Shown here one piece after another: positions 481 to 52,629 of a stretch of DNA of 64,000 nucleotides (position 1 is the stretch's first letter; every line of letters begins with the position of its first letter). A program made the translations under genes and the position numbers. The notes beneath the pieces were generated by a model that worked only from the letters and a program-made list of their open reading frames with translations, did no database searches and was not told the origin of the DNA. The stretch comes from Octopus sinensis (lineage: Eukaryota). The stretch spans positions 20,150,001-20,214,000 of the forward strand of contig NC_043016.1 of NCBI RefSeq assembly GCF_006345805.1, read 5' to 3'.

Positions 481-489
481 TACCTAATT

Positions 490-790: not shown

Positions 791-1009
791 TTGCCACACT
801 TGCATGGGTTGGATAGATTTTCCAACACAGGATTTTTGCCACTTTTTGTGAGGTTCAAACTCTTTCTTCTTCATCTTTCACAGTTTTTGTTCATGTGGAT
901 CTTTTGGCATAGCAAGGAAATTGCTAGAAACCATTCAACAGAGCCATTAAAGTCATCTGAAATTGTTCTCTTCCCCACTTATCTGGGAAAATGGACATCG
1001 GAAGTGAGA

Positions 1010-1610: not shown

Positions 1611-1871
1611 GAGGAATTCAATTTCCTCATTGGCTGTCACAGAAACCATGGGTTGTGACTTGCAGAAACATGTTCCTTTCTCTTAACCCAATTGAATTTG
1701 TAAGACCTAGTGACTTATGTTTATAAAATTTATAAAAAGTTTTTAAAAACAGGAAGAAGCAGACTCCACTGAACCTTAACAAAATAGCTTCTTGACCTCA
1801 AAATTAATCTGGATCTAAGAAAGGAAATAAAAACCTGTAGTGAGACGAGAAGAATTTATGTCTTTGCTTAA

Positions 1872-7700: not shown

Positions 7701-8254
7701 CCTGCAACAATATGCACACTCCATGTCATACGTCAGAGTAAACTTAGAAAAACATCATACACAAGATCCACCATATGCATTTATACAAAAATGGAATGAT
7801 GAATATGTAAAGCTGGAATTGAAAAACAAAGAAAGACTCTCTGTTGTAGTATTTGCTAATAATCTTACGCAATAGGGAAGTCCATCTTGCCCCATAAAAC
7901 ATCTGGATCTAAGACAGAAAATAAAAGCATTTCCCAGATTCAAAGAGGATTGCTCATTTCATTTATCCACTCCAGCTAGGAGGAGAGAAGTGGATGAAAT
8001 TCAAGATAAACCTGCAACAGTATGTCAACCCTGTATGAGAAGCCTCTCCGAAAACATACAAAACATCCTGAATGTAAAGACGGACAAAATGCCGCTAAGC
8101 ATTTTGCCAAGTATGGTAACAATTCTGTCAGGTTGCTGCCTTCTTTTTCTCTTTGGTAATGACCTGAGAAGGATTTGAACGCCGAATGTAAGAAGTCGGA
8201 AGAAGTACCACTAAACATTTTGTCCAATGGAATAATTAATGATTCTGCCTACTC

Positions 8255-8395
8255 AGAGGACAGAGAAGCTTGCAGACTTCTACATTTTGCCTGTTACAAG
8301 GGACACACAGACACTGTAAAACTACTACAGCAGAATGGCATGGATGTCAGCAAAGATAGATGGTGGAGGCACCATTACTTCTTGCTTGTTGGAAT
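8255..8395 (+). pseudogene. Ankyrin-repeat fragment (best copy of ~13 in the array)
   Basis: DREACRLLHFACYKGHTDTVKLLQQNGMDVSKDRW, continuing after a frameshift into APLLLACWN, is about 1.5 ankyrin repeats. Other copies start near 3055, 3325, 5540, 5805, 5990, 8525, 12590, 12740, 13015, 13485, 13745 and 13930. Confidence 0.75.
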
Positions 8396-11300: not shown

Positions 11301-14300
11301 CAGGAAGAAGCAGACTCCACTGAACCTTAACAAAATAGCTTCTTGACCTCAAAATTAATCTGGATCTAAGAAAGGAAATAAAAACCTGTAGTGAGACGAG
11401 AAGAATTTATGTCTTTGCTTAAAACAGTTGAAGGAATCCGGGGTAGAGGTAGACCCAGGAAGACATGGGATGAGGTGGTCAAGCATGACCTTCGAACATT
11501 GGGTTTCACAGAGGCAATGACGAAAGACCGAGACCTCTGGAGATATGCTGTGACTGCGAAGACCTGACAAATAATGTGAGTTCATGGCTGTTTCCTGCAC
11601 CAGCTTCACATAGAAGCCCCAGCCCTTCCAAGGTGCCTTGGATCGCAGGACGGCCTGCGGTACTTACATTGGATCATAGGGCGACCTGCTGTGCTTGAGG
11701 AGACCTATTGAGTCAAGTACATTACCATCAACATCAAAAAATCAAATGGAAATTGTAGTTGTGATAACTGGGCTGGTGGCTCGTAAAGTGCACCATCCGT
11801 ATGTGGCTGATGCCAGTGCCGCCTTGACTGGATTCTGTGCTAGTGGCACGTAAAAAGCAATGACCAATCGTGGCTGTTGCCAGCCTACAGTGGCATCTAA
11901 AAAAGCACCATCCGTATGAGGCCAATGCCAGAGCCGCCTTGACTGGCTGCCGTGCCAGTGGCACGTAAAAACACCTACCGATCATTGCCAGCTTCCCCTG
12001 GCACCTATGCCAGTGGCATGTAAAAAGCACCCACTACACTCATGGAGTGGTTGATGTTAGGAAGGGCATCCAGTTGTAGAAACACTGCCAGATCAGACTG
12101 GAGCTTAGTGCAGCCTCTTGGCTTCCCAGACCCCGGTCGAACCATCCAACCCATGCTAGCATGGAAAACGGATGTTAAAAATGATGATGATGATGATGAT
12201 GATGCTGTGGTACAATTCAGTTGTACTGTGGAAGAATTCAGCCAATAAGAGCTGCAGGCGTATGAATAAAATGGCAGTGATCTGTCCTAGATAATGAACG
12301 CGCTACAGCAATAAAATGGCTGTTCCAAATTAATTAATGAATGAATACAATGCCCAAAAGTAACAGCTCTTTTTTAAAAATGTAAAAAAGTCAACCTCAG
12401 AAGAACTTGAACTCAGAATGTAAAGATGGACAAAATGCCTCTAAGCATTTTTCCCAGTGTGCTAACAATTCTGTCAGGTTGCTGCCTTCTTTTTCTCTTT
12501 GCTAGTGACCTGAGAAGGATTTGAACACCAAATGTAAGAACTTGGAAGAAGTGCCACTAAGATTTTGTCAAATGATCTGATTCTGCTTGCTGAGAGGACA
12601 GAGATGGTTGCAGACTTCTAAATTTTGCCTCTTTTAACGGATACACAGACGTTGTAAAATTACTACAGCAGAATGGTACTGATGTAAGAGGTTTGAAGAG
12701 GTGCCACTAAGCATTTTGTCCAATGGTCTGATTCTGCCTGCTCACAGGACAGAGATGCTTGCAGACTTCTACATTTTGCCTCTTTTAATGGATACACAGA
12801 CACTGTAAAACTAGTACACCAGAATGGCACTGTTGTCAGCAAAGAAAGATGATGAGGGCACCATTACTTCTTGCTTGTTGGAATATTTTACTTTTCAATT
12901 TTTTCTTCTTTCCTTTCCATTTTCTCCCTCTTATTCCTCCCAAAGTTAGAGTAAAACTAGGTTTATATGCAGTCCTTGACCAAGCTGAAATGGAGATCCA
13001 CAAAATTCTGCCTGCTCACAGGAGAGAGATGATTGCAGACTTCTACATTTTGCCTCTTTCAATGGATGCACGGACATTGTAAAACTACTACAGCAAAATG
13101 GCACTGAATTCAGTTGTACTGTGGATGATTTCAGCCAATAAGAGCTGCAGGTGTATGAATAAAATGGCAGTGATCTGTCTGAGGTAAAGAACGCCCTACA
13201 GCAACAAAGTGGCTGTTCCAAATTATTTCATGAATAAAAGGCTTAAAACTAACATTGCATTTTTTAAAAAGGTAAAAGTCAACCTCAAAGGAACTTGAAC
13301 TTAGAATGTAAAGATGGACAAAATGCCACTAAGCATTTTTCCCAGTGTGTTAACAAGTCTGTCAGGTTACTGCCTTCTTTCTCTCTTTAGTAGTGACTTG
13401 AGGAGGATTTGAACGCCGAATGTAAGAACTTGGAAGAAGTACCACTAAGCATTTTGTCCAATGGAATAATGATTCTGCCTGCTCAGAGGACAGAGATGCT
13501 TGCAGACTTCTACATTTTGCCTGTTAAAATGGATACAGAAACGTAAAACTACTACACCAGAATGGCACTGATGTCAGCAAAGAAAGATGGCGAAGGCACC
13601 ATTACTTCTTGGAATATTTTAATTTGCATTTTTTCTTTCTTTCCTTTCTATTTTCTCACTCCTATTCCTCCAAATTTAGAGTAAAAGTCAGGTTTATATG
13701 CAGTCCTTCACCAAGCTGAAATGGAGATCCACAACATTCTGCCTGCTCAAAGGACAGAGATGCTTGCAAACTTCTACATTTGCCTGTTAAAATGGATATA
13801 GAAACGTAAAACTACTACGCCAGAATGGCACTGATGTCAGCAAAGAAAGATGAAGGATTTGAACTCCGAATGTAAGGAGTCGGAAGAAGTGCCACTAAGC
13901 ATTTTGTCCAATGGAATAATGATTCTGCCTGCTCAGAGGACAGAGATGCTTGCAGACCTACATATTGCCTGTTACAAGGGACACAAAGACACTGTAAAAC
14001 TACTACAGCAGAATGGCATGGATGTCAGCAAAGAAAGATGGTGAGGGCACCATTACTTCTTGCTTGTTGGAATATTTTAATTTGCATTTTTTCTGTCTTT
14101 CCTTTCCATTTTCTCCCTCCGCTTTCTCCGAAGTTAGGCTAAGAGTCAAGTTTATATGCAGTCCTTGACCAAGCTGCAATGGAGATCCACAAAATAGATT
14201 TACACAAAGAAAAACATTGAACAATGAATTTCTAAAGCTCTAAATGATCTAGAAAGACAGGATTTCTATCAGGAAGTTGAAGATTGGAAAGTAGATCCAA

Positions 14301-15269
14301 GAAGATGACTTCACCAGACCTAATTAACATTCCAAGTTTAAAAGAAAAAATACCAACTCCATGTTGGATGTCGGAGAATACTTGGAGAAACATCCTCCAC
14401 AAGATCGATTTAAAGAACAGATGGAATGATAAATTTGTAAAGCTCATATTGAGCAAAAAAAAGAAATTCTCTGGTGCAATATTTGCTAATAATGTAACAC
14501 GATAGGAGAGTGCATTTCTCCTCATGAAGAATCCGGATCTAAGAAAGGAAATAAAAGTATTTTCCAGAGTCTTGATTAGGTACAAATAAATACATGTTTC
14601 AATTTTCATTAAAACATCAATGTCTTCCAATCTTTTTAGTGATCAATTAATGAATGTAAAATTGAGACTGCATTAAAGTCAATGCCTACATAGAATGATT
14701 AATACTCTATGGAACAACGTAAAGCAAACAAAACAGTAACTTCATAGATGGAGAGCATATCAGCTGTATGTGTAGGTTCTTGGTGAAGCTCAATCTAAGA
14801 TCCACAAAATGAACTTGCACAAACAAAAATATTCAATTGGGAATTTGTAAAGATCAAAAATGAGCAAGATAGGCTTTCTAGTATAGTAGTTGCGAGTTAC
14901 CTATTAGATCAAGGAGCCAATTTTCTCCCAAAAGAAGAAGCAGATTTCTCTGGAAATATAAGTTTCAAAGGGATATGATCCAGATTTAACAAAAGAAATA
15001 AAGACTTATTTCGCATCACTACAAGCCTGCACAGGCGATGGCAATCTGCTTCCATTTAGGGGGCTTATTAGAGAATCAGCCACTTCAAGTGGGCTGAGAA
15101 CCAAACTGACATCCCCACAATGGCTCTGCACAAACAAAAATATTGAAACATGAATCTATAAAGCTCAAATTGAGCAAAGATGACAGATTTTTTAACATGG
15201 TAATTGCTAAATATCTAGCCAACCAGGGAGCGGAATTTATCATAAAAATAAGAATGTAATCTCACTGAG

Positions 15270-16070
15270 CCTCACCAACCATAAATGCCAGAAAACAAAA
15301 CTGCTTGTTGCATCTAGAGCAAGTATCAATGAGGAAAGATAAGACAACATAGGTCAGGATACATCAAAGAGTGAACCAGAAAACCGTTGAAGATGTCGGC
15401 AATGCAAGAGTCAAACTATACATGTGCAGGAAATGCAAAGTTCCTATGCATGTCAAGCGTGCCTCTATCACAGAATGCAGTCTTAGTGAAGTTTTGGGAA
15501 GAAGTCCTGTGAATCATCTTACATTACATAATAACAGAAAAGAAAAAGGTTAGATTTAGACAGAATGTATATTTTAATGTTTTGTGATATTGTATTATGC
15601 TGTATTACAATGATAATTATAGTTTCAAAGTAAAATCTTCATAAAGGTTTCAATCAGTTCTATAGTTTGTTTAGTTTAATTATTATTTCAAATACTCGGT
15701 CATTCTCATCTAATCTCAATGTTAGCTTTAATTTTCACTAATCCAAATATTTTTCCTAGAAATAGAAAGAATGAGTGTAAAATGCTTCAATTTTATTTGA
15801 ATTAGTAAACATTTTTGATGTAAGATGTTTTGTATAATGATACATTATGTTACCTGTGGCCCACCGTTGCACTAACAAAACATGTACTAGGGCTTGTGTG
15901 CTCACTGTTGCATTAATGTAACACACAAATTTGTAATAACTTCTTACCTGTTAAATAAATTAGGAAAAATAATCAAGTAGTATGTATTAAACATAATTGT
16001 CTACCATATATGTAAAATATAACTGATTCCTAAGACTTCATTGTTTTGTTTTTTATAAGCACATACGGGT
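15270..16070 (+). mobile_element. piggyBac/PGBD-like transposon 3' remnant
   Basis: Across frameshifts it reads R*DNIGQ...RCRQCKSQT-YMCRKCKVPMHVK, the Cys/His-rich C-terminal domain of piggyBac-type transposases. Sub-terminal repeats (CAC.GTTGCA.TAA) lie at ~15862 and ~15903, and the putative end CATACGGG|TGAA at ~16062-16073 would be a degenerate GGG-TTAA. Confidence 0.6.
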
Positions 16071-17370
16071 GAATCAAGCCATTAATTATTACTATTTAAA
16101 TCCACAAGAGGTACATACAGAATCACTGAAAGATGAATTTGTAAAGCTCAATTGAGCAAGAAAGATAGATCTTGTAGCACTGTAGTTGCTAATTTAGCTC
16201 ATACAGAAGTCAAGTTTATTATAAAAACAATAAGAAGCAGACTCCACGGGACCTCATTGAAAGTCTAAATTTAAGAGTAAAATGTATCCCTATCACCATC
16301 AGTATTCATTGATAATGACAATGTAAATATGTACAAATTCTATTGGGTATATAATCATGTTTGTTTTAATTCTAACAATACATTAGACCATCACTAGTGT
16401 CTTCACTGAAGACCATGTGACAATAAAAGAATAAACAGAAAATATAAGGAAATGCAAGATCCTGAGAAGGAATGCCAAAAAATGTATGACATGTTGGCAG
16501 ATTTGAATATATAACAGCCTTTGTGTGTAATGTTAAATGGATATGGAAAACGAGCCACGAACATTTGACTCAAGAACATCTAGGACTTCAACAATATCAA
16601 AATGAAACTATCCAAAATGTTGGTCAAGACAGTTCTGATGTATTATAACTTTCCAAGGTCCACGCGATTTATTTGTACAAACAAAAACATAAATGAATTT
16701 CTAAGGCTCAAATTGAGCAAGAAAGATAGATCTTGTGCTGTAGTTGTGAATAATCTAGAAAATATTGGAGCCAAGTTTATAAAAACAGTAAGAAGCAGAC
16801 TCCACTGAACCTCATTAAGAAAAGAGCTTTGTGGATTTTTTGTTAGATGCTTTCCATTGTTCTTGGCTTTTAACCTCTGGCACCTGACGAAGCTCAACTG
16901 AAGATTCATAAGATGGATTTGCTCTAACAAAACACTGAAAGGGGAATTTGGAAAGACCAAATTGAGCAAGACTAGCACACTCGGCTTTGTCATTGTTGAA
17001 ATAAGAGAAAACAGGAGAATTTGAGTTGAGGAAGTTGGAATTAGAATTTCAAAATGAAACAAAGAAAATGGAAATTGAAAATGAATTATAATTGAAAGAA
17101 ATAGAGTTACAGAGTAGAAAGTTGGACATTCCTCGTGATCAGAAAGATTTTGATGTAGTCCAAATTGAGCAAGAGTGGCTGACTTTCTGATAAAGTATTT
17201 ACGAATAATCTAGGATGTCAGGCAGCAAACTCTACAATAAAAAATATAAATATAAACCCACTGGGTCACATAAAAGATCCAAAGAACCAGCAACTTCAAA
17301 GTGGGCTGAGAACCAAACTGACATTCACAAGATGGATTTGCACAAACAAAAATAATAAATCATTCTTTAA

Positions 17371-17513
17371 CCCTTTAGTGTTTAAACCGGCCATATCTGG
17401 CCCAGATATTCCACATGTTTTATATTCAAACTAGCCAGATCCAGCCTCTCCCATCTAACCTACATTGACATTCTTAATATTACATTTAACAGAATAATCT
17501 GAACACTAAAGGG
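17371..17513. mobile_element. 143-bp piggyBac-type MITE
   Basis: TIRs CCCTTTAGTGTT / AACACTAAAGGG are flanked by TTAA on both sides (17367-17370, 17514-17517). The empty site ATTCTTTAAAG is visible in paralogous array copies (~4799, ~7462). Confidence 0.9.
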
Positions 17514-17939
17514 TTAAAGTGGAAATTGAGCAAGAAAAACAGAATTTGTAGCGTGGTAATTGCTAATTGTCTAGCAGACCAAGGAGCCAAATTTACCATA
17601 AAAATAAAAATGTAATCTCACTTGTCCTCAAAAAAGATACAGATTTAACAAAGAAAATAAAAACATTTTTCCATATTAGTGAAATGGCAACTTCAAAGTG
17701 GGCTGAGAATGAACCTAAGATCCACAAGATGGATTTGCACAAACAAAACAATTCAAACATTATTCTTTAAAGTTCCAACTGAAGAAAGAAAGACTCTCAG
17801 GTGTAGTATTTGCTAATAATCTAGTACAATAGGGAAGTCAATTTGGCCTCATGAAGAACCCAGATCTAAGACAGAAAATAAGAGCATTTCCCAGAGTCAA
17901 AGAGGATTGCTCATTTCATACAACATTGACTAAAAACTA

Positions 17940-18380
17940 AGCATTTGGAGCAGGCATCTTTGCTTTGTAAGTGCTGCAGAAGTGGCCGTCCACTGTGCCA
18001 AAGTCGAAAGAGGTTGGTCCCTTCATGACATGAACAGTCACAGATTGAAGCTTTCAGATTTGAAGGGGTCAACTGTGTAGACACGTCCAATTCTGTCACC
18101 TTTGTACAAGGCTGAATCGAACCTCGTAGAACGGCCTTGTTTTCACTGTTGCCACTGGGAAGATGATTGATTCCATGTATAATAATGTGGCACTTCAGTG
18201 TACAAAATAGACTTTGCAAAGGAGTCAAGTTTGCATGGGTGAAAGAAGGCTGTGAGAGTGGTCTTTGGCAGAGCAGCTGCTTGTTCAATGAGGTTGTCTT
18301 GTGCAAAGTACTTTCACTGTCTATTTCCAACTGAACGCCAAGAGTTCAACAAAAGTTTGGAATCTATTTTGTTGATGTAA
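17940..18380 (-). mobile_element. Helitron Rep/helicase fragment
   Basis: A minus frame reads PKTTLTAFFHPCKLDSFAKSILYTEVPHYYTWNQSSSQWQQ*KQG...IGRVYTVDP. This matches the Helitron RepHel segment TTLTAFF..C....A..LLY.EVP.YY.W....W..RK.G...GRVYTVHP. Confidence 0.85.
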
Positions 18381-22451: not shown

Positions 22452-23035
22452 TCACTTAGTTTGACTGAAATTAGCTGTGGCAGTTTTATCAAGGGTTGTG
22501 GTTGTTTGTATTGGGTGTGGTGGAGTAGGCGGTGTAGTCATGGCTGGTGTTAGTATACATGTTGAAACTGAAGTCCTTGACGGTGATCTGCCGTTATCTG
22601 TGGAAGAAATACTGCTAATTAATATGTTTGGTGCTGTTGTTGCTGTTGTTGTCGTCGTCGTCGCTGCTGTTGTTGTTGTTGTTATAGTTGTTGCAACTGT
22701 TGCTGATGTTGTTGTTGCTGCTGTTGTTGTTATAGTTGTATTACTAGACAAATTTTGGGAAATATTACTTCCATTGTTGTTGCTGTTAAGAATCTGGTGT
22801 TCCACTGGGTTAACTTCTGCAATGACAGCGATGGTACTAACTGAGGGTGGCTGTTCGTGTTTGTCGGCATCAGTAATCCCGTGTTTTCGCAGGAGTCCTT
22901 GCAAGAGTTCTATTTCTCCTTCTTGAGCAGAGCAATATTCACGGAACTTGGACAGTTCCTGTTCACAGGCTTCACGCAGACGGCGTTCTCGCTGCAGCTT
23001 CTTGTCTGCTTGTTTCTTCACAGACATAATAATAC
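22452..23035 (-). CDS. HVCN1: Voltage-gated proton channel Hv1, last coding exon (end of S4, coiled coil, Thr-rich tail, stop)
   Basis: Acceptor TTTGTTTAG|GT at 23036/23035. The phase-1 join with the upstream exon gives RILN-G-IIMSVKKQADKKLQRERRLREACEQELSKFREYCSAQEGEIELLQGLLRKHGI, homologous to the human Hv1 segment RIINGIIISVK...LLRQHG. TGA is at 22454-22452. Confidence 0.92.
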
Positions 23036-23065
23036 CTAAACAAAAGGAATTTGAAAAAGATGAAG

Positions 23066-23073
23066 GAGGGAGG

Positions 23074-23105
<32 letters not shown>

Positions 23106-23139
23106 AAGAGAAAGAGAGAGAAAGAGAGAGAAAGAGAAA

Positions 23140-23209
<70 letters not shown>

Positions 23210-23445
23210 AAGAGAGAGACAGACAGACAAAGAGAGACAGACAGACAGAGAGAGAGAAAGAGAGATAGAGAGAGAGAGAAAGAGAGGGATGGAGAGGGAG
23301 AGAGAGGGAAAGAGAGAGAGGGAGGGAGAGAGAGGGAGGGAGAGAGAGGGAGAAAGAGAAAGAGAGAGAGGGGAGAAAGAGAGAGAGGGGGAGAAAGAGA
23401 GATGGGTGAGAGAGAGAGAAAGAGACAGACAGACAGAAGAACTCA
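23066..23445. repeat. ~380-bp compound (AG)n/(AGAC)n microsatellite (pyrimidine tract on the Hv sense strand)
   Basis: Direct observation. It ends ~30 nt before the acceptor of the last Hv exon. Confidence 0.95.
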
Positions 23446-23714
23446 GTATATATATATAAAAAAAAAAAAACAATGCAATCTTCAGACTCTTGTACCTGAA
23501 TTTTTTTTCAATGTCTTACACCTGTTTATTTCCTCTCCTCAAGCTAGCATGGTGGTGTAGCACAAGTATCAAAACAATTGTGTCTGCAGCTGGGCAGATG
23601 CCTTTTGCTATCTAGTAAACCATTCAAATATGGTAAATAAAGTCTTGCTCAATCAGCAGACTTATGTATTTAATAAGGAACAAAACTGTTTTTAATTTTG
23701 AGTTTGTGGTTGAC

Positions 23715-24300: not shown

Positions 24301-25839
24301 TGCTTGTGCCTCTCCGAAAGAGAGAGAGAGACTAATCTGTCACCATTCTATGGCCATCATACACATACATACTGAGAAGCAACCATGTTTGAGAAAGAGA
24401 AACAGAATGTTGCTTCTTTGTTGGTATTATCACTATAATTAAGAAATTAAATCGTTTTTTGCTTTGAAGGTTTGAAAGCACCCCTACTCAAGTAGTTCAA
24501 GAAATAATTCATCTCCACACAATGAAAAGATAAATTTCATACTTAAAATATCAAAACAAATCAAGGTTTAAAAAAAAAACCAAAAAAAAAAACCTTGTAT
24601 TTTAAACAGAACTCTAAGTTTATATATCTGCAGTTGTTAATTAGATTTGACTTTCTCATTATGGGCATATACCTGTAACCAGTTTGATAACATTTTCCAT
24701 GGGCCCTCAGACGACTACCTATCTGATTTACTTCATTTTTTTGGTGACAAAGCACACAATTTGGTCAATATTTACATCAACAGAAGCTTCACCGTTATGC
24801 AGTAATCTAAAAATGAATTTTCAGCTCAAGCAGTAGATTAGCATAACTTTAAAAGATAAAAGACAAGTCCTCCACCTCTGATATCATTGGAACTGTATAT
24901 GTATCCCAGCATCCCATGTTGGTTTCCCAGGAATATTTCTGGACTCTCTATCATGCAGAGCTTCAACATACAGCAGTTTTCTGGCATTATGTTTCAATCA
25001 CTATAATCTCAAAATTGTAGACTATTTTACCTCGGAGACCACCATTCACTTTTAATCAGTGCAGATGTTCAAAGACTTAATGTTGTATGTTCCAAAATAT
25101 TTCTTGGTTTGCGCTGATGATGCTTTCTGCAAACTAATTCTCACTAATCACTTTAGAAACCTCCTTGTGTACTAAAATCACACAATCTTTGTGTACCAAA
25201 ATCACACAATCTCTTGTAATTGAGAAACATAACCAAAAGCCAAGATCCTTAAATCTGGCTCATGTGGCAGTTTTTTTTTCCCCATTATTTGACAGCAACA
25301 GCTGTCTCCTGTAGGCTTTCCTTGTTTTATTCTTTTAATTTTTTTTACAAGATTACCATCATTCATGAAATATGGCCTCACAAAATGTTACCATATGCAT
25401 GAATTTCTTTCAACAGTTTTGGTACTGTGTTTTCATTGACTTTTGGATGAATTCCCCTATATCAATCTCTTCCTTCTACTCAATAAGACAGATGACAAGA
25501 CTAACTCAGCATATATGGTATACCGAGACAACCTGCCTTTTTCAATATTTCAGTGTACTGATGTATAACATACATCTTAAACCCTTCTGGTGAAATCTGT
25601 CTTCATTTGTTGATAAAATGACTTATCTGCATACAAGTATAGCAAGAATCATTACAGATACATAGCATGCCAAAGTTTTAAATTCCTGTCTGACCAAATT
25701 TAATTCTCTAACATCTCAAATGCAACTGAAACCTTTGAAATTCTTGAGGTCATCTACATATGGTAGAATGTGTTTTTATAAATCATTAAATTTTCTTTAT
25801 TTTCCGGCATGAATTTACATTCTTATTTGGTGCTATTAG

Positions 25840-26145
25840 GGTTGGAAGAATTGATGGAATGGTTGGCAAGAGCAAATGGAGTGAGGTGGTATGGACATGT
25901 GTTGAGGAGGGATGAAGAGCATGTTCTGAGGAAAGTGATTGCATTTGATTGCGAAAGTGAGATAGACTGAGGAAAAGATGGGGGGGGGACAGGTGGAGGA
26001 GGAGATTGGGAGGGCTGGTTTGAAAAAGGATGCCAACAACTGGGCGAGGTGATGTGAGGGCAGTTGCTATGGCACTGAGGTAGATCTGGCCACCCTTGTT
26101 AATGGGGACAAACCCCAGATTTAAAACACTGGATGATGGTGATGT
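25840..26145 (+). mobile_element. RTE-clade LINE 3' fragment in an Hv intron
   Basis: RANGVRWYGHVLRRDEEHVLRKV (RTE C-terminal RWxGHVxR motif) followed by a GATGATGGTGATG tail. Confidence 0.75.
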
Positions 26146-26186
26146 ATTAAGGTTTTTTTTTTTAACAAATGTAAAATAAAACTTAC

Positions 26187-26685
26187 CATTCAGGATTCTT
26201 GTCATTCTCCATAATCTAAGCACAATTAAAAGACCCACACCATTCTCAGGTCCGTCATGCTGTCTGAATACAATATCCAATACAAACGAAGCTATAACGA
26301 CAACTGCATCAAACATTTCCATCTTATGCCTGAAGAAGTCAAGTCTCAATGCATATAACCGAAGAGCAATTTCCAGCAAGAATATGCCCAAAATAGCTAA
26401 GCTAGCATAGCGCAAGATGAAAGCAACAGCCATTTTGTCATAATCATGTACCTGAAGTATTTGAAGGTCTAGCAGAAGTTCAGAAATTACCAGTAGACAA
26501 TCAAGAAAGACAAGGCAGATAATTCCAATTTGGAATATATTGGTGTTAATCAAGTGGATGACCCGTTCACGGATTGTGCGGAATTCTTGTTTGGTTTCAT
26601 CAGAATCCGTAGTGACTGAACTGTTGGAATCTTCCTTCTCGATAACCTTCTCCAAGTCATCATGGAGTTTATGGAACCCTTCCAT
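26187..26685 (-). CDS. HVCN1: Voltage-gated proton channel Hv1, main coding exon (N-terminus and S1-S4)
   Basis: S1 FQIGIICLVFLDCLLVISELLLDL carries the selectivity Asp (D62, human D112). S2 has F102/E105, S3 is FFRHKMEMFDAVVV, and S4 LRLWRMTRILN is the Hv signature RxWRxxR..N. The acceptor TTTAG lies just upstream (exon starts 26691) and the donor G|GTAAGT is at 26187/26186. Spliced CDS is 499+584 nt = 360 aa plus stop. Confidence 0.95.
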
Positions 26686-27027
26686 CTTGACCTAAATTTA
26701 AAAAATAGCATATTTAAATATACTAAATAAGAAATAAAGAAAGTTATAAAAAAAAATCTACATAAAATCTGCACAATGTTGACAAGGTCAGAGAGATCAA
26801 ATTCGTCCCCTTTTCTGCAAACACACTATCCTTCCCCTAATCATGTAAATTAACTTGAAAAATTTATCGATTCCTAGAAATTATCTCCCCCTTCTCATAA
26901 GATTCAAATATCTGCTGCTAGGATTTTGCCTGTAGCATTCAGTATACCATTCCTTCATTTTACAATGCTTTATATTTCACTTCATACTTTTGTCGTGAAA
27001 TCCTATCAATGTTGCTTTTGTCTTTAA

Positions 27028-32511: not shown

Positions 32512-32728
32512 TAAGGCGGTGAGCTGGCAGAATCGTTAGCACGCCGGGCAAAATGCTTAGCGTATTTCGTCTGCCTTTACGTTCTGAGTTCAAATTCTGC
32601 CGAGGTCGACTTTGCCTTTCATCCTTTCGGGGTTGATAAATTAAGTACCTGTTACACACTGGGGTCGATGTAATCGACTTAATACCTATGTCTGTCTTTG
32701 TTTGTCCCCTTGTGGGTAATAAAGAAAT
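32512..32728 (+). mobile_element. Full-length tRNA-derived SINE (AAGGCGGCGAGCTGGCAGAA head, Tx1-like tail A)
   Basis: B-box-like GAGTTCAAATTC, tail ...CCCCTTGTGGGTAATAAAGAAAT, and TSD AGGTATTA(C/A)TGCTA at 32497-32510 and 32729-32742. Confidence 0.9.
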
Positions 32729-34132
32729 AGGTATTAATGCTAGTATTCCATAGATAACACTGGTGTGTGGTATTTCTACAAAACCTGTGTGACCACACAG
32801 AAGTCCTCTTAAGAGAATAAAGAGGAAAAAAAAAGTTACAAATTTCCATTTGAAATAACCATACATACATTATATTTAACAGAAAATATTTTTGTTACAC
32901 ACTGACTGGACAGATGTATTACTTGAAGCTTTTGACAAAAAAGAGGATATAGCATCACAATGTGTAGGACAACTGGAGGTTTCTGCAGGACAATCTGTTG
33001 AGGACTACAAGCCAGATCTGTGGCTGGTGCAAAGTCCCCTCTTGACCTAAGGTGACATGATGGAACAATGTAGTTGGCAGGGCCATTGGGGAAAAGAAAA
33101 TGTTCAGTTTGAATGATTGAAAGGATGAAAATACACACATATATATATATATATATGAGGAGGCAGATTAAGTCAAATGCTCAGTACAAAAAGTATGATA
33201 TGCAAGAATAGTGGCAGTAGTTGTAAGCAGAATCAAGTGTGTTAGTTTGAAGTGTAAAAAGCTATCTAGTTCCTTTCTCTACCATCAAATACTCTCTTCA
33301 TAATCCTTTATAAGCAAAAGGATATGCGCCAACAAAGAAACCTCGATACCTCGACACTAGGAAGAAAATTCATTTAGAATATACTTTCATTGTTTGATAT
33401 TCCTTTTTCTATGCCAGCAGGAATTGGATGGTTTTTCTGAATGTTTTATAGTTGGATTGTCACGGATGATAGCTTTCTAGCTAAGAAGGAAAACCATTGG
33501 GGAAGAACGAGTTCTAATATATGCTACTTTTGCCTGTAGACAGGCTCCCACACTTTCCATTAACCAAGATTTACATAGGTCCTTGATTAACTCAAGACTA
33601 TGGCAGAAAGCACTTGTCCCATCTGATAAGCAATGGAATCAAACATGAAGCTACTTGGTTGGGACATGAACCACAACTCAAACTACTCAGCAATGCTGTC
33701 ACTGAAACAAAGTCAAACTAGTAAAAGATTTCCATGTCTTTACAGCAGTGGCTGCCATCATTCTACAGGCAGTATATCGTATTTGAGTCCATGTTTTAGT
33801 TCCCAGTTACCATTTCACATCAGTCAAGGTTTAAGAAAAACAACATTTCTCTCACAACTATAAATGAAATATATGAGCAACAAGATGCTCTCTCTCAGTA
33901 GTCATCAAGCCTGCTGGGAAAAAACAGCCGAATTATACCCTGTCTAAATAACAGATGTATTGGTCAAAATAACTAATAAACAGAAGGTTAGAACAGTGAA
34001 AGATGGATTGGTCAATTAAATCAATCTCAGTATTTTATTTTGCTGACCTTGAAAAGCAGCTACTGGAACATGATAAAGTCTTCAGACAGGTTGGATCTTG
34101 TCAAACCTTCCAACCAGTGCAAACATAAAATA

Positions 34133-36315: not shown

Positions 36316-36534
36316 AGTGGCGAGCTGGCAGAACCGTTAGCATGCCAGGCGAAATGCATAGCTGTATTTCGTCTGCCGTTACGTTCTGAGTTCAAATTCC
36401 ACTGAGGTCGACTTTGCCTTTCATCCTTTCAGGGTTGATTCAGTACCAGTTATGCACTGGGGTCGATGTAATCGACTTAATCCGTTTGTTCTTGTTTGTC
36501 CCCTCTCTGTTTAGCCCCTTGTGGGTAAAGAAAC
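36316..36534 (+). mobile_element. Full-length tRNA-derived SINE (tail A)
   Basis: Same family as 32512-32728; TSD AATTTGATATATTTAT at 36300-36315 and 36535-36550. Confidence 0.9.
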
Positions 36535-39729: not shown

Positions 39730-39959
39730 TAAGGTGGTGAGCTGGCAGAACCATTAGCATGCCGGGCGAAATGCGTAGCCGTATTTCATCTGCTGTTATG
39801 TTCTGAGTTCAAATTCTGCCGAGGTCGACTTTGCCTTTCATCCTTTCGGGGTCGATAAATTAAATACCAGTTACGCACTGGGGTCGATGTAATCGACTTA
39901 ATCTGCCTGTCCTTGTTTGTCCTCTCTATGTTTAGCCCCTTATGGGTAATAAAGAAACA
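39730..39959 (+). mobile_element. Full-length tRNA-derived SINE (tail A)
   Basis: Same family; perfect TSD GATATTAAAACATG at 39716-39729 and 39960-39973. Confidence 0.9.
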
Positions 39960-40945
39960 GATATTAAAACATGAATTAGGCTTCATAACCTGGAAGCTCA
40001 GGTTATGCATAACCTGGAAGCACAGGCTGTCGAAGAAAAACCTAGTGCCAGCGGCAGCGGTCCAGAAGGCAATGAGTGGAAGAAGAAGTGGTCGTGGTGC
40101 TCTTGGAAGTGGCTATGCATGGGGTAGGGTTATGGCTGGCAAAATGAGTGGTAGCTGTACTGGCATCCGACCCTCATCTTGTGACAGGAATGTACCAGAC
40201 AACTAAGTGGGTTGTGTCGACACTGATTTAAAGAGTTTTTGGTGCTTCATAAAAGTTTGCGAGTCAGACAGGAAAGAAAAATAGATTACAAGGTGCCTAT
40301 GTCGAAGTTGTATCGTCTTGCATGTCCAAATGCCCACCAAAGAATCTGGGTGTACGTATTTTGTATCAACTTGTGGAAACCAAAATAATTAGTTTCGTAT
40401 GCAAGTTTATGTGAATTAGTATATTAATAACAAATGAGAAAAAAACAAAACCTTACAATTTTTTTTTTTTATTAATACTCAACAAAGGGTCGGTCGTTAC
40501 TCAAAGGCTGAAAGTTTCGTTCTTTCTACCGATTATTCAAAAAAAACAAAAAACGTTTTGAGTTTTATTTTTTCCGTCTGCATTACCAATTATATATATA
40601 TTTATATACACACTCGCATACCAAGTATATGTTTAGTAAACTTGTAGAACGCTGTGTTTATTTTCATCTCGGTGACATTCCATCTTTCCTGTGTATTACT
40701 GTCCTGGTGTCAAAATTGAAACCTCATATAGGCTGTACTATTTATTTATAAATGGTCAGTCGACCAGTATAGTTTGGTCGCAAATTGATTCATCAGGCAG
40801 GAGACAACGTAAATAAATCCGAATCTTAAATATTCAGCAGTTTTGTTTACCATAGTCGGAATTCTCTGCATTTTAAATTGATTCAATAAAAGGAAAAATT
40901 GTTATTCACTTAGCTGTCCCATTCATGCAGATCGTGAAGTATAAT

Positions 40946-45387: not shown

Positions 45388-46302
45388 TGGTTTTAACATA
45401 TTAAGCAAATATACAGGTGCCGTGTCATGTCTGCCTCAATCGATATCCTGTTAAAACAGCTTGGGAGAACATGCAGTTCGAAACTTGACCCAAGACACTC
45501 AGAAATTGATGAGAGATGAGTCCATCACACTGGTTCAAACATTTCGAACCTAATAGATGCCTGTATTGATTTATAAGCCTTGCTCATGGAAAGTTCAGTA
45601 AATGATTGCGACAGCTCGTTCTAAAGTGGCAGAGGTAAAACTGAATTTCTCAAGAGTTAGGATTGTCCGTGGTTATGGTCAAGTGGCAGTACTACTAAAA
45701 CTGATGTTTGGAAGTACCAAAGTGGTAGTTGAGTCAATATGTTGTCTACTGACAATGAGACAGTGAGTCTGTAACATTTTCAGCTGGCATAAAACGGTCG
45801 AAGTTGGTTGAGCAGCAATTTGTTGAATTCAGCAGGTTACAATGACAGACTTTGAGTTCCTGTTGCGTGTCTTGGCTGCTATTTCTCAGTTGATTAATAA
45901 ACGCTGTCTGGAGATGGTGTCATAGATGATGAAAAAGTGTGGCAAATTGAAACCCAGTCAGAGATTAAACTGATTCTAATTTCTGACAACAGAGCTTTCC
46001 AGGTGCTGAAAAGATGACTTAAAATATAAGATTAAGGACTTTTGCATAAGTGAAAAAATCATTTTTGGGAACTACACCTGGACTGCAAGACCTTTCACCT
46101 TCACATTGGTTGATTTATGAGACTGGGCTAGATTGAAGGATGTCAAAAATAGAAATGAGGCAAGTGAAGATGAAAAGACACTGGCTGTTATTGAGTTTGT
46201 CAAGGTTGCTAATTATAGCCAGGTTTTTCTGAGTCTTCTGCTATTTCTTCCATTCTTTTACGTTTGGGTTCAGCAAATGTAACTTAGGTTATATGGTTGG
46301 AT

Positions 46303-46456
46303 ATTCCTTTCTACTCTAGGCACAAGGCCTGAAATTTCGGGGAGGTGCCAGTCGATTAGATCAACCCCAGCATGCAACTGGTACTTAATTTATCGACCCC
46401 AAAAGGAAGAAAGGCAAAGTCGACCTCGGCGGAATTTGAGCTCACAACGAAATACC
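46303..46456 (-). mobile_element. 3' part of the host SINE (tail B), separated from its head at 52136-52183
   Basis: SINE body ending in ...CCCCGAAATTTCAGGCCTTGTGCCTAGAGTAGAAAGGAATAT. The outer TSD TTA(T/G)ATGGTTGGAT is at 46289-46302 and 52184-52197. Confidence 0.85.
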
Positions 46457-46824
46457 AATTTCTTTATTACCCACAAGGGGCTAAACACAGAGGGGACAAA
46501 CAAGGACAGACATAGGTATTAAGTCGATTACAATGACTCCAGTGCGTAACTGGTACTTAATTTATCGACCCCGAAAGGATGAAAGGCAAAGTCGACCTCG
46601 GCGGAATTTGAACTCACAACGTAACGACAGACGAAATACCAATTTCTTTATTACCCACAAGGGGCTAAACACAGAGAGGACAAACAAGGACAGACAAACG
46701 GATTAAGCCGATTATATTGACCCCAGTGCGTAACTGGTACTTATTTAATCGACCCCGAAAGGATGAAAGGCAAAGTCGACCTCGGCGGAATTTGAACTCA
46801 CAACGTAACGACAGACGAAATACC
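46457..46824 (-). mobile_element. Two tandem 184-bp headless SINE copies (tail A)
   Basis: Units 46457-46640 and 46641-46824 each run from GGTATTTCGTCTGTCG to ...GTGGGTAATAAAGAAATT on the minus strand. Confidence 0.9.
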
Positions 46825-47073
46825 AATTTCTTTATTGCCCACCGGGGGCCAAACATAGATATGGACAGTACAACTGATGGGATCAGTGAATCGATATGAT
46901 TTTACATAAATGTGACATCAAAAATAAAATACAATACATAAAAATCGAATGGAATACACAGTACAAAAACAATACAAATGAAGCGATGATCAAGTTACGC
47001 TCCGATCCCACAAGCCCCGATCTACCGCTGATACCTTTTTATTTTTCCTTTTTTTTTTTTTTTCCTCGTCTAT

Positions 47074-50000
47074 TCACACGGTTCCTTGCACGCACAACAC
47101 TCGTGCAACATACTTCCATCTCTTTTGGAACGTACACTCTGACAGACACCTCTTCTCCAGCCACAGTTTCCTTTTCAAATGAAAAGAAAAAAGGATCGTA
47201 AATTGTCACCAGAGATAAAGTTGCCTGTCTTAATTCTTTTATCCTAGTATTCCATACAGCCTCTTTTGCTATTGCTACAACCGTGAGAAAACAATTCTTA
47301 CCTTCGTTCGTTAGAACTCCCGGTGGGTCAACAGATGTTCAGCATAAGCCCACATTTCAGTTATCTCCGGACACTGAACAATAGCGTGAGGGACGGTTTC
47401 CCTGTCCCCACCGCATCTTGGACAGGTCGGCGACTGACGTTTACCATGTCTTGCGAGCTTATCCCAAACGGGCAAGGCACCTCTGTAGCATTGCCAGGTT
47501 AAGGACTTTTGGAAGTTGTCCAACGTTCTCAACCCGAATGTACGATGAAACAAGCTGTCCAGTTGAATAAATCCGAGACCTAGAGTCGACCCCAGGCCAT
47601 CGTCGCATTCAGACTCTACCAACCACTATATAAAATCCGTGTGGAACCCCCACCGCTGGCGTTGCCGAGCGCCGGAACAGCAAGAGGGCCTTACGGCACT
47701 CTTTATGCCACTCACTCGACCTCGGTCTACGAGAACACCAGGCTTCCTGTTCGCAAAAACTCTTGAACTCAGGGAACATTTGTCTGGCCAGCGGAGACCA
47801 CACCCGTTCACTATCCAGGAGAATCCAGAGGTGCCTCAACCTCAACGCATGTCTGCGCATCATTAACCAAGGCATCCCTAAACTCCATTTAAAGGCTTTT
47901 GACAGCAGACAGAGCGTTTCACAAGTGGCGACCTGCCCTTCCACAAAAAGCGAAAGAGCTGTCTCTCCAACCTGATCAACCACGAATCCGGACAGGGCAC
48001 GACAGTCAGGCGGTAGGTAATGACCGATGCGATAAACACATTGGCCACTTCCGCCCTCCCTTTCAGGGATAGCCACCGCCAAGACCAAGTCTTGACTACT
48101 GCAGCCACCCTGCTCAATACCTCCGTCCAGTTCTTCTCTATCTGGAGGCCTGGTCCAAACCAGACTCCCAGCAACTTAACCGGTCCCTCCGTCCAGCGCC
48201 TAACAACACTGTCTGAAGGCATCGACTTGCCAACCCAGGTGCCGAGCTGCAAGCCGACCGACTTTTCCCGGTTAATCTTTGCTCCTGCTACCTCCTCGTA
48301 AGCCTCAATAGTCTTACCTACTTCACGTAGGCGTACCACTGTGGTTACACTGATAGTGATATCATCCGCGAAAGCCGTAACAAACTCCTCTAGTCCTGGT
48401 TCTCTCGGGATGTCACTCAACCTTTGCAGTAATGGCTCGAGAGCCATCACATACAAAAGTGGTGAAAGCGGACATCCTTGACGAACCGAGCGTCTGATGC
48501 AGAACGGCTTCGAAAGGAAACCGTTCACCCGAACTATCGAGTCAATGTTGTGGTACAAAGCGATAAACCACCTGAGGAAGCCAAGGCCCAGGCCAAACCG
48601 CGCAAGTACAGTCGCTAGGTATCGATGGTCAACCCTATCAAAAGCTTTAGACTGGTCCAAATGCACCAATGCCCCACCTTTGCCAGATTTATTACCAAAC
48701 CTCTCTATGGTATAGCGAATAAGATGGAGGGTATCCTGAATGGTTCTGCCTGGGATGGCACATGTCTGTGCCTCCCCGACTATACCATTCGCGACACGCG
48801 CCAACCTTTTTGCTAGAACCTTGGCCAAAATCTTCACTTCTGCGTTTAACAGAGTGATGGGCCTGAAATTCTCTAGAACGTCCCCCTTGTCCGGGTCCTT
48901 TCTGACCAACGTCACTACTCCCCGGCGCACAGATCTGGGGATAAACCCATTCTGTTTCCAGTTCGCGTACACGTCAGTCAGTAGTTGCCCGAACAAGTCT
49001 GGCATACATTTATACAGCTCGTACGGAAGACCATCAAGTCCCGGTGACTTACCCGCTTTACAATCGGCCAAAGCCTCCATCACCTCCTCAAGTGTGATTG
49101 GCCCTTCGCAAGACTCCGCATCCGACCCCGAGAGGCACGGCAGCCCGGTAAAAAGTCCTCGAGGGCTCTCCCACCACCAGGACCACCGTCACCCCCGAAC
49201 AGCTGGGCGAAGTACTCCCGAAAGACCTCACACATTTTCTCGGGTTCGTTTATCAAGACACCATTTTGATTCGTCAAAGACCGAATAGAGGAACTATTTC
49301 CTTGCCGAGCTTCCACCACTCGGGCCCATCCAGCGGCTTTGATTCCTTCACTTCCCATTGCACGTAACTTAGCTCTGGTAATACTTCCCATGTGGTGGGC
49401 TTCAAGATGCTGGTTTAACTCCAGTCTTTTCACCCTCGCTTGGTCTGTATTACCAGTCCTCCAGGCTTCTTCTAGTTCCTTAACTAGACCATCTCCTATT
49501 TTACGTCCCTTCTTAGCTAAACTTATGCTAACCTAATAGACTCATATTTGATGGCTCTTTTTAGGGCGTACCACCATTTGTTATTAATGATGGTACCTGT
49601 TAATGCCCTCTGTATTAACATCTTGATCCGCTTTCTGTACTCCTCAATCGCCAAAAGGGACGTATTGAGTTTCCAGTAGCCAGATCCCTGTCTATGCAAC
49701 TTATCTACCGTCAGTTTACAGGTAACCATCTTGTGGTCACTGTAGCTGACTAGAAAAAACTGTGGACACTCAACTATGGACTTATCTTTTTCTCTAATTA
49801 AAATCCTATCTAGATATGTTCTGGTAGACCCGTCACTATTGACCACGTCCACTGTGGAGTGTTCGGGTGCTCCAACCTATATGGATCTGCTAGCTGAAAT
49901 TGACTTAGCAGATCCCGAAAGCCTGTGTTACATTTTCTGTTCATGTTCGAGTTTGAGCCAACACAATCTGTGTGTGCTGCACATATTGTATTAGAGTCTC

Positions 50001-50417
50001 CTAACACTACTAGTGAATGCGACGTGGCTAGGAACTTTCCTAGGCCACAAAAATATTCAGTTTGCGGGCCAATAATGTTTGGTGCATAAATAGCGACCAG
50101 CCTGATTGTCTTGCCACAACTGAATGTCAAGTCGAGAACGACCAGCCTGCCTTCTGGGTCAGAAAAAACCAACTTTTTCTCGGCTACCCGGTTTCTTTTT
50201 AGTAGGACCAACACCCCACCCCCACCTCCCGCCCGACTCGGAGAAACGTATTTCTCGTAGCCGTTCAGGAGGGGAGCAGATCTCTTGGCCCCTTCACCCG
50301 GGTTTCCGTTGCAACAATTACATCCAGATTTCTCGACCTGATGTCATTCAGAAAGCGTCCTTGCTTCCAGCTTGACAACAGGCCATGAACATTTAAACAA
50401 CCAATGTGAATAGCCAT
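47074..50417 (-). pseudogene. LINE ORF2: AP endonuclease, reverse transcriptase and C-terminal CCHC (frameshifted as assembled)
   Basis: Starts MAIHIGCLNVHGL...DVIVATET. APE motifs: AIYAPN, VLGDSN, YLDRIL, YSDHKMV, GYWKLN. RT motifs: GKSPGLDGLP, NFRPITLLN, LDQSKAFDRVDH, SVRQGCPLSPLLY, AFADD. Zinc finger CPRCGGDRETVPHAIVQC; stop at 47076-47074. At least 6 frame changes. Confidence 0.9.
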
Positions 50418-50428
50418 CACTTACCTGT

Positions 50429-51955
50429 TTAATTAGGATTGTCCGGTGGAGGGGGACCCTCCACCTTTTTTTTATCCAGGGTCGGAGGTGGACGGTCTTG
50501 GGAAATAGATTTGTCAAAATCCCGTCTCACCACCGACACAGAATTATCAGGTGGAGGGGGAATCTCCACCTTTTCCTTTTCTCGCGGGATCGGAGCTGGT
50601 AATCCATGAAATATCGACTTGTTAAAATCTAATCTCAATGAAGATACAGTCTTTCTGTACTTATTTTGTAGAATTCTATAAGTCTTATTTGAGACTTCAT
50701 ATATGTCGTAATTGATAAATTCCTCTGAAAGGTTATCAATTTTTTTACAGTCTTTATGAGTTGAATGTCTCTCATGAGCTCAGTATCTTTAGTGTATACG
50801 GCTATTATGCCTTTTTCTTCTTTTTCTCTTCTGGCAGTCTTTTTTGGTCGTTGTTCTGTAGTAGTCGCCGCTCTCGGCTGGGTTGCTGGTTGTATTTTTC
50901 TTTTGTTTGTTGTTTTTTTTCTCATCTGTTTCTTCTTTATCTTCTTCCTCTTTGTCTTTTTTCTCCTCTTCCTCCTCTTCTTCATTTTCCTTGCAGTTCC
51001 TTCGAATGTGGCCTAATTGACCACATAAAAAACATCGAGGTTTTCGGCCCTCAACAAACACCACGAGGTTCTCCTCCCCTACCTCAATTGTCTCAGGAAT
51101 TGTTTGAATTATTTTAGGGTCCGCTTGAATGAGAAGATTAATTGTTTTACCATCCCAGCGTGGGTTTTCCGTAGCGGTAGCCTGGAGGAGAGTAATTTTT
51201 TCTACCTCTTTGATTAGGACTGCCGCCAACAACCACATAGGTTCGACCTCTGGCGGGACCCTTGTAATTTTTATTCGCGACGTCCTCATCCCCATATAAT
51301 AGGGTATTAACTCCACGTCGTTCGTTTTCAACGTTTCCACTGAGTTCTTGTGTGCTATTTCTTTATTGGTGAACCTTACTTCCACCGTTCCGAATTTTTT
51401 TCCTCTCTCAAAATACTACGTCGCCCAATATTGGCTTTAAGCACTTTTCTATTTTCTCTTCTGACATTCTTTCAATTTTTCTATTTTGTAGACATATGTT
51501 TTGAAAATTATTGTTTTTTGCTTTTCTTCCTGTAATAACTTTTGCGGAGGTTCAATTTTCACACTGTTGTCATTTATTTCCATCATTTTGCTGTATTTCA
51601 TAATTTCGCTTTTATTCGTCGACAGTATCTGGGTTCCACCCCCAGCAGCCAACGCAAAACTTTTTTTTCCATTTTTTGGTTCTATCTGGATGCTAGGCAC
51701 ATCAATTATTCTCTTCGACACAATGCCTTTGTTCTCTGGCAAAGTCGGAAACTCTTCTGGTGAAAGTTCTGACGAGCTCTCAGACACATCTCCAAAAATA
51801 TCAAATATATTATCCTCTCTGCTATTCCTTCTTGTAGCGGGGGAAACCCCTATTTCCTTGTCTGTAGTTGGCTCCTCGCCGGACATGTATTTCCTCCTCT
51901 CAACAGGAGAAACAAGTATTTCTGCTCCAACGGTAGGCTCCATGCTAGACGACAT
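50429..51955 (-). pseudogene. LINE ORF1: gag-like nucleic-acid-binding protein (frameshifted as assembled)
   Basis: Zinc knuckle VEGRKPRCFLCGQLGHIRRNC (CX2CX4HX4C) is typical of Tx1 ORF1. It also has an acidic/basic low-complexity tract and a duplicated Pro-rich C-terminus. First ATG at 51955, stop at 50431-50429. Confidence 0.85.
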
Positions 51956-52135
51956 TCTTCCCCCCAAAGGGGGAATGAACAACGCGTGCTACCACAAGCA
52001 CTAAGTGTTTTCAATTGAAAACTCCAACAGTTAAGTTATTCAACAGTTTAACAAGAAACAACAGTTGTTAACAATATTAACACCACGAAACAGCAATTCT
52101 TACTTCACGAACACATGTGCGACAGACGAAATACC

Positions 52136-52183
52136 GCTACGCACTCCACCCGGCATGCTAACGTTTCTGCCAGCTTGCCGCCT
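52136..52183 (-). mobile_element. 5' tRNA-like head of the interrupted host SINE
   Basis: The minus strand reads AGGCGGCAAGCTGGCAGAAACGTTAGCATGCCGGGTGGAGTGCGTAGC, continuing directly into the TSD GGTATTTCGTCTGTCG as in intact copies. Confidence 0.9.
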
Positions 52184-52629
52184 TTAGATGGTTGGATCTT
52201 GCCAAATGTAACTTAGTTCACCAATTATGGCAAGATTTTGCTAGGTGCTTGAATATTTGTTGTTCCCATATAAAATCCCAAGTTACCATCTTAACTTTCC
52301 AATGAATCTGTTGATCCAGCATTGAAAGTCATTAGTGATTATTAGGTGTGGTGGTGGTGGTGGTGAGGTTGTGTGCCAATGTTGCTGGATTATGTTGTTG
52401 AGCAGAAAAATTCTTGTAATTACTTCATAACATTGAGCAAACATTTGAACATGGTTTATTGTGCTGTTTTAGTATGAAAAGATGTCCGTGTATTGCAATT
52501 AATATACAGAAGCAGTAAGGTGGGAACTACTTTTAATATTCTAGCATTCTGTACCTGCATTCGTCATTCTGTCGTTTCTTGTACTGTACTTTTCTAGGTT
52601 CAAATAACTTAACAATATTCTAGGATTCT

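Follow-up and report, generated by a model that had tools for sequence, protein, structure and literature searches.

An L1/Tx1-type LINE of Octopus sinensis inserts at one base of a tRNA-like SINE and probably mobilises this SINE to the same base

A stretch of 64 kb from Octopus sinensis (NC_043016.1, positions 20,150,001 to 20,214,000), hereafter called the window, was analysed together with the 2.72-Gb genome. The window holds a full-length long interspersed nuclear element (LINE) of the L1/Tx1 type, inserted in a short interspersed nuclear element (SINE) that also carries further SINE units. Copies of this LINE lie at one fixed base of the SINE across the genome, they entered SINEs that were already in place, and they end in a tail shared with one form of the SINE, here called tail A, whose own copies are stacked without heads at that base. 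Judging from these sequences, we consider it rather likely that the LINE reaches the fixed base through an endonuclease nicking [C/G]GTATTTCGTCTG, and that it also mobilises the tail-A SINE to the same position. The locus is read on the minus strand as follows.

52184..52197, minus strand: upstream copy of the outer 14-nt target-site duplication flanking the host SINE, ATCCAACCAT(C/A)TAA, with one mismatch to the downstream copy
52136..52183, minus strand: head of the host SINE, its tRNA-like 5′ part, separated from the body by the inserts; 84-85% identical to the free copies at 32513, 36319 and 39731
52120..52135, minus strand: target-matching 16-mer GGTATTTCGTCTGTCG at the LINE 5′ junction, likely carried in part by the LINE RNA and not a plain duplication
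46825..52119, minus strand: full-length L1/Tx1-type LINE, 5,295 bp, without poly(A), 3′ end AATAAAGAAATT; 97-99% identical to 38 other full-length copies
50429..51955, minus strand: open reading frame 1 (ORF1) with a CCHC zinc knuckle, frameshifted in the window copy as assembled; an intact 520-codon frame in copy L092
47074..50417, minus strand: ORF2 with apurinic/apyrimidinic (APE) endonuclease, reverse transcriptase and zf-RVT, frameshifted as assembled; an intact 1134-codon frame in L092
46826..46869, minus strand: LINE 3′ tail in common with the tail-A SINE (84-86% identity over 36-44 nt), with the same predicted small stem-loop
46641..46824, minus strand: tail-A SINE unit 1, headless, 184 bp, with a rare T junction at its end
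46457..46640, minus strand: tail-A SINE unit 2, headless, 184 bp, its first 76 nt equal to unit 1, also with a T junction
46303..46456, minus strand: original host SINE body with tail B and a 12-nt deletion right after GGTATTTCG
46289..46302, minus strand: outer target-site duplication, downstream copy

This nested order (outer duplication, head, LINE, two tail-A units, tail-B unit, outer duplication) had been proposed in a first-pass annotation of the same DNA and was reproduced here. The annotation had also stated that every insert meets the same SINE sequence at its 3′ end, and all three occurrences of AATAAAGAAATT in the window do adjoin GGTATTTCG, which itself occurs exactly four times, every time at the nested locus. 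The full 16-mer is present three times at the locus and not four, as the tail-B unit lacks the 12 nt after GGTATTTCG. The two 184-bp units are not identical, again as described, but differ at 10 of 184 positions; nine of these differences cluster in a 71-nt stretch in the middle, and the first 76 nt are free of them. These differences, together with tens of thousands of similar junctions genome-wide, make an assembly stutter unlikely as the source of the units. Recurrence of the same junction genome-wide also indicates that the pattern at the locus does not reflect chance.

The position of the LINE in other parts of the genome was then compared. A query with only the 3′ untranslated region (UTR) gave 356 candidates, of which 40 were scored; 40 identical copies were returned and 30 were cut out. 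Directly after the LINE end, T-[C/G]GTATT was found in 30/30 of these best 3′-UTR matches, followed by the SINE body in 29/30. The SINE head stood directly upstream of the LINE in 40/40 copies, and the first base of the LINE was kept in 39/40. Exact matches numbered 137 for the 3′ end (29-mer) and 99 for the 5′ end; N[CG]G[CT]ATT came next in 130 (28-mer prefix). One of 30 checked 29-mer matches was a SINE with a LINE-like tail, and LINE 3′ ends number about 137. When 100 distinct LINE ends were inspected, 92 lay at the SINE base, three beside it and five outside any SINE; this set was picked by LINE sequence and not by flank, with 30 of the loci chosen mostly for having no exact 5′ match. The random landing rate is about 7e-5 under a generous assumption of 400,000 SINE sites, and strict intact target sites number 50,519 in the genome. 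Older LINE copies (75-91% identical to the window copy) showed the same preference, with 29 of 33 ends at the SINE base. Enrichment of LINE 3′ ends at this SINE position, which the first-pass annotation predicted, was thus borne out, and we are nearly certain that the LINE family targets one base in the tRNA-like SINE. According to the accessible part of Kojima (PMC4494074), a LINE is target-specific when one sequence type makes up over 20% of its flanks; here it is 92 of 100 ends. The 6-mer motif alone is insufficient, as of its 93 occurrences in the window only 5 fall at SINE sites. Two off-target ends (L174 and L175) both fall in one other repeat, at GGTATTGC[A/G]TCTG, a near match of the target 13-mer, and one short copy lies in AT-rich DNA with a 15-nt duplication. 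Contigs (X7 and X9) carrying two other organism labels likewise pass from the LINE into the SINE head, and one spans the 3′ junction into the target. For the young LINE, the target base was C in 44, G in 22 and T in one of 67 cases, and the end letter of the LINE was T in 97/100; the target of older copies was G-type in 28/33.

The SINE head (window 32530-32580, free copies) forms a long hairpin, in which pairing is preserved in either of two common variants, GCG..CGT and GCT..GGT, and the LINE inserts at the 3′ edge of its 4-nt loop. As a target determinant the hairpin was considered and set aside as unneeded: off-targets occur in plain look-alike sequence, and no antisense junctions were seen among the first 100 listed.

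The order of insertion was read from divergence at 31 of the 40 loci, nine being omitted for rearranged flanks or truncation. Pairwise divergence was 0.6-0.8% for the LINE parts, 12.5% for the host heads and 11.7% for the bodies (minimum 2.0%). The outer duplications of the host SINE, of at least 9 nt, were intact in 10/16 single-unit loci. The SINE hosts were present first, and the LINE copies are separate later insertions. Alternatively, SINE bodies would travel with the LINE, by 3′ transduction or as a head-LINE-body composite, and no targeting would be involved. Downstream of the LINE, tail A could plausibly serve as a second site of priming, and the units in the window carry the LINE-type T junction. 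However, the bodies behind different LINE copies are far more diverged than the LINE itself (0.7%), their closest pair included, the closest of 112 units to unit 1 differs by 3.8%, so that none is a near-identical donor, and 15 of 16 fetched loci with a T junction have no LINE 3′ end upstream. We regard such co-travel as highly improbable; with about 0.7% divergence for the LINE against about 12% for the host SINE, composite movement or routine 3′ transduction was rejected.

The 16-mer upstream of the LINE does not behave like a plain target-site duplication. Its two copies showed 43 mismatches over 37 loci (in 28 of them), where about 4 would be expected for a true duplication of this age; in this count three one-base deletions count double. 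Position 1 was equal in 38/38 loci and positions 2-7 were invariant, and target variants at positions 8-16 were mostly missing upstream, L094 being the exception. Moreover, upstream position 14 tracks the LINE lineage (permutation p=0.004) and downstream position 14 does not (p=0.45). Because the upstream 16-mer follows the LINE lineage and not the target, plain target duplication is unlikely. Cleanly truncated copies have only 2 (L184), 1-3 (L163) or 11-14 nt (L020) duplicated. We infer that some 15 nt of target sequence probably stand at the start of the LINE RNA, whose complementary DNA (cDNA) would pair with the cut target at 5′ joining. Such a target-matching leader would explain the intact LINE 5′ ends in 39 of 40 copies. 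The first-pass annotation had suggested target pairing at 5′ joining for the SINE, and the LINE's own upstream 16-mer appears to lend it independent support. Folding of the LINE 5′ region was no better than that of shuffles (z=1.16) and showed no ribozyme.

We were also interested in the relationship between the LINE and the tail-A SINE. The LINE 3′ tail matches that of the SINE at 84-89% over 36-44 nt, and both tails give the same minimum-energy stem-loop, which is no better than in shuffles (z 0.46 and -1.2). Mean identity of 142 SINE tails was 0.79-0.81 to three older members of the LINE lineage, 0.74 to the young copy and 0.66-0.75 to three sister families. Genome-wide, 102,389 tail-A ends were counted, and 31,545 (30.8%) of them adjoin the LINE target site. 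Against these 31,545, only 94 head-retaining junctions were found, by a search pattern looser at one end; several are in runs and many have 13-18 nt duplicated. Headless joining is the rule for the tail-A SINE at the target, and the earlier expectation that tail-A insertions are enriched at the same base as the LINE, mostly headless, was confirmed. Three free tail-A SINEs in the window (32513-32730, 36319-36530 and 39731-39960) have duplications beginning GGTATT, GATAT(A)TT and GATATT, which fit the target in a relaxed form. Tail-A ends also recur at another junction, in which the tail is followed by AGAAACGTT, at position 17 of the SINE head (L061, L083, L085, L098 and L058), and one tail-A end adjoins AGAAC within LINE copy L170.

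The SINE has flanking duplications and over 100,000 copies. Tail B may be older than tail A, as core diversity of 17.2% (37 copies) against 9.6% (159 copies) suggests, with the tail-B class mixing tails; older LINE copies are often hosted by tail-B SINEs. The tRNA likeness of the SINE head appeared only at an ARAGORN score of 80% or lower, with inconsistent isotypes, and nothing was found at 90%. An Rfam scan of 46000-52500 gave four chance-level matches and no tRNA. The SINE presumably resembles MetaSINE or the described octopus OK/OR1/OR2 SINEs. We predict with fair confidence, from the sequences compared, that this SINE is a partner of the present LINE lineage.

The stacking of SINE units could also have a different cause, namely tandem duplication or unequal exchange at the DNA level after few insertions, so that the 31% of tail-A ends at the target would say little on SINE targeting. 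Adjacent unit pairs, in a set of 26 in which some loci overlap, differed by 5.5% or less in 12 cases, as against 3.8% of 1,500 random pairs (p=1.6e-5). The T junction, which is rare at 330 of 31,545 (1%), occurs in tandem runs in several arrays, and SINE-derived satellites are described for reptiles in the accessible part of PMC10702118. There are also arrays of 65-67-bp units that consist of head and 16-mer only, a mirror image of the headless ones (C1:195358955-195359250, C3430, C7:15322784 and C18:40398940), and their existence fits duplication as well. On the other hand, the remaining 14 of 26 adjacent pairs range up to 14.8% difference, many being as different as random pairs. Arrays often close with a tail-B body, which is impossible for a tail-A duplicate. 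The base at which the LINE itself inserts is also the fixed boundary of the units, and head-retaining insertions with duplications exist. Duplication as the main source is unlikely. Both processes act, since 12 pairs are close and 14 divergent, and the arrays have grown by re-insertion as well as by local duplication.

For the window locus, the first-pass annotation had described a SINE hit three times at the same base. This is doubtful, as the two units share the rare T junction and 76 identical first bases; two independent hits sharing a T junction would be expected in about 1 in 10,000 cases. Three independent hits are accordingly quite unlikely. The shared T junction, the 76 identical bases and the divergent middle make one insertion plus duplication likelier than two hits, and the likeliest history would be a tail-B SINE, one tail-A insertion, a local duplication with partial conversion and then the LINE.

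The coding content of the LINE agrees with the L1/Tx1 group in that there are two ORFs, with an N-terminal APE endonuclease, a reverse transcriptase and a C-terminal zinc-binding motif in ORF2. The window copy contains Pfam pieces of the endonuclease, reverse transcriptase and zf-RVT, as well as the ORF1 zinc knuckle, in frameshifted frames. Many frameshifts of the window copy coincide with single-letter differences from all four sequencing runs compared; they are therefore private changes or assembly errors. The intact copy L092 has frames of 520 and 1134 codons with matches to Pfam Exo_endo_phos, RVT_1 and zf-RVT, and zf-CCHC in ORF1 scored 22.9-23.9 bits over a cut-off of 20.8. An ORF1 with a CCHC zinc knuckle is a feature of the Tx1 clade. 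Human L1 ORF2p is the closest solved relative of L092 ORF2 (E 1.8e-64), and a protein automatically named 'Transposon TX1' is 30.5% identical over 773 aa. A FastTree tree placed the LINE within a 9-row clade of unnamed proteins, with no named Tx1 family references included, and a search of the ESM Atlas gave unnamed reverse transcriptase clusters only. From its architecture and the one automatically named relative, the LINE may belong to Tx1. The GDxN motif of the endonuclease (ORF2 residues 142-145 of P0001) reads GDSN in the young family, GDWN in the sisters and GDFN in five older copies.

Sister families were identified by a search with a related protein, which gave intact families with ORF2 56-58% identical. 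At least three of them (L202-L225) have the same tail type, one at (ATT)n and two at (CTAT)n, and sister LINEs are often in head-to-tail pairs. Among 20 of at least 50 matches, 9 of the sister 3′ ends adjoin (ATT)n and 11 adjoin (CTAT)n-type repeats; three of three intact 5′ ends checked adjoin the same repeats as the 3′ ends. Because the (ATT)n junction T-GATTATT resembles T-GGTATT, a target switch, perhaps from microsatellite to SINE, is plausible on a tree that has no tested root.

Taken together, the insertion process would run as follows. The endonuclease would nick just before the C/G, and reverse transcription would start from the shared 3′ stem-loop, with a second-strand cut about 13-18 nt downstream. 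As the LINE RNA would open with about 15 nt of target sequence, the finished cDNA could pair with the cut target, giving uniform full-length 5′ joins. The SINE cDNA would find the same matching stretch within its own sequence and be joined there, giving headless units, and arrays would extend further through local DNA duplication.

Several observations weigh against this process, or against the part in it of the young LINE. Among the first 100 listed, SINE junctions are unlike those of the young LINE, with 98 G-type and 98 A-ended, and about 47 of the first 100 SINE heads listed are C-type. About 69% of tail-A ends lie elsewhere, at GGTA starts, TA runs and the second head site. The tail of the young LINE (0.74) is no closer to the SINE than that of a (CTAT)n sister (0.75). 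L094 carries a private position-13 variant in both 16-mer copies, like a true duplication. In the GDxN motif, Ser replaces the aromatic residue of the relatives in 47 of 52 copies read, and part of the specificity could come from RNA-DNA pairing.

This last point can be extended to an explanation in which the RNA guides the site. Read-through RNA would keep flanking SINE sequence at its 3′ end and pair with a target that an endonuclease of loose specificity had nicked, so that each copy would prefer targets resembling its own flank; this would be compatible with insertion and SINE mobilisation by the LINE as proposed here. AATAAA stands 6 nt ahead of the junction, which would place RNA cleavage within the target, and poly(A) was found at 0/100 LINE ends. 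One LINE subgroup, defined post hoc, lies in C-type targets in 12/12 cases compared with 14/26 for the rest (Fisher p=0.007). Nearly every SINE junction reads A-GG, and 14 of 45 free SINE insertions start with GGTA, as if the RNA end gave the match; the atypical GDSN motif also fits. However, a distance test of the target C/G (position 1) against the LINE lineage was negative (p=0.95), and sister families with the same tail hold fixed targets of their own, as is predicted where the endonuclease sets specificity (PMC4494074, in its accessible part). We judge RNA guidance to be somewhat unlikely.

The tail-A SINE could also owe its movement to a sister family outside the present sample, or to an ancestor now extinct, the present LINE merely using the SINE as its target. 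At least three sister families have a similar tail, SINE copies also occupy TA runs and GGTA starts, where the LINE is hardly found, and they predate the young LINE by far. However, in its final 17 nt the SINE agrees with this lineage but not with the sisters sampled, and the older lineage members, which are closest to the SINE, were already at the same base and are mostly G-type like the SINE. Another mover is thus unlikely. A closed self-feeding loop may also be considered, to which we give somewhat less than an even chance. A microsatellite-targeting LINE lineage would have switched to an older SINE, and the SINE would have captured the LINE tail. By copying its passenger, the LINE would from then on supply itself with safe landing sites, and a target-matching RNA leader renewed from each host SINE would give near-uniform full-length insertion by an APE-type enzyme.

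Other features were found in the window apart from the nested locus. Exons of an ion-transport voltage-sensor protein lie at 25786-26691 and 22452-23507 on the minus strand (Pfam Ion_trans, 42 bits), together with a likely coiled-coil exon; they may belong to an Hv1-like proton channel. Positions 1-18000 form a large nested tandem region of higher-order units of about 2.5-2.7 kb, made of related pieces of 58-300 nt.

The known targets of site-specific LINEs are RNA genes, microsatellites and other transposons, and a LINE with its target inside the SINE that it probably carries as a passenger would have its supply of targets tied to its own activity. Such coupling helps to explain how tens of thousands of stacked SINE arrays arise in a SINE-rich genome, arrays which repeat annotation would split into false families. 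The polymorphic targets provide a natural marker test for the open question of LINE 5′ joining, in which the upstream 'duplication' follows the element. Four sister families, with different targets at 56-58% ORF2 identity, form a comparison set for specificity switching of APE endonucleases. A compact enzyme with mostly full-length insertion at a single base is also of interest for targeted gene insertion.

Cephalopod repeat papers report L1-Tx1 and abundant SINEs but name no targets in their accessible parts (PMC13282606, PMC8967140). No paper on a LINE targeting its partner SINE was found in a literature search outside Repbase/Dfam entries, subscription papers and supplements, where an earlier mention is possible. 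The closest system is that of Kojima 2015, in whose accessible part crocodilian Tx1-Mar LINEs and SINEU-3 share a target in Mariner-N4; preference for the target is 13-23% in SINEU-1/2 and 90% in SINEU-3, and SINEU-3 is tandem there (PMC4494074). In both cases a Tx1-type LINE and a SINE share one target in an interspersed repeat, SINE copies are stacked in tandem and the preference of the SINE may be weaker. In contrast to Mariner-N4, which is a third element, the target here lies within the SINE itself, so that each copy is a new site, and the stacked units are headless. The same source gives Tx1D as the target of Xenopus Tx1, U2 small nuclear RNA for Keno and microsatellites for Kibi and Koshi. 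These are likewise APE-type sequence-specific LINEs, and the present sisters at (ATT)n and (CTAT)n recall Kibi and Koshi, the likeness being one of features; no SINE is among their targets in the accessible part of PMC4494074. For R2, Eickbush et al. 2013 proposed, in the part accessible, that 28S target sequence left on the RNA 5′ end anneals and gives uniform 5′ junctions (PMC3774820), and target sequence on the RNA 5′ end is what the LINE described here would also have. However, R2 has a restriction-like endonuclease, a ribozyme like that of hepatitis delta virus and ribosomal DNA as its site, whereas here the enzyme is of the APE type and polymorphic targets let variants trace the leader. 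Squamate SINE-derived satellites, as described in the accessible part of PMC10702118, likewise consist of SINE parts in tandem, bounded by a single SINE start and a single end; no site-specific LINE is named there, whereas in the octopus arrays the unit ends are the LINE target base.

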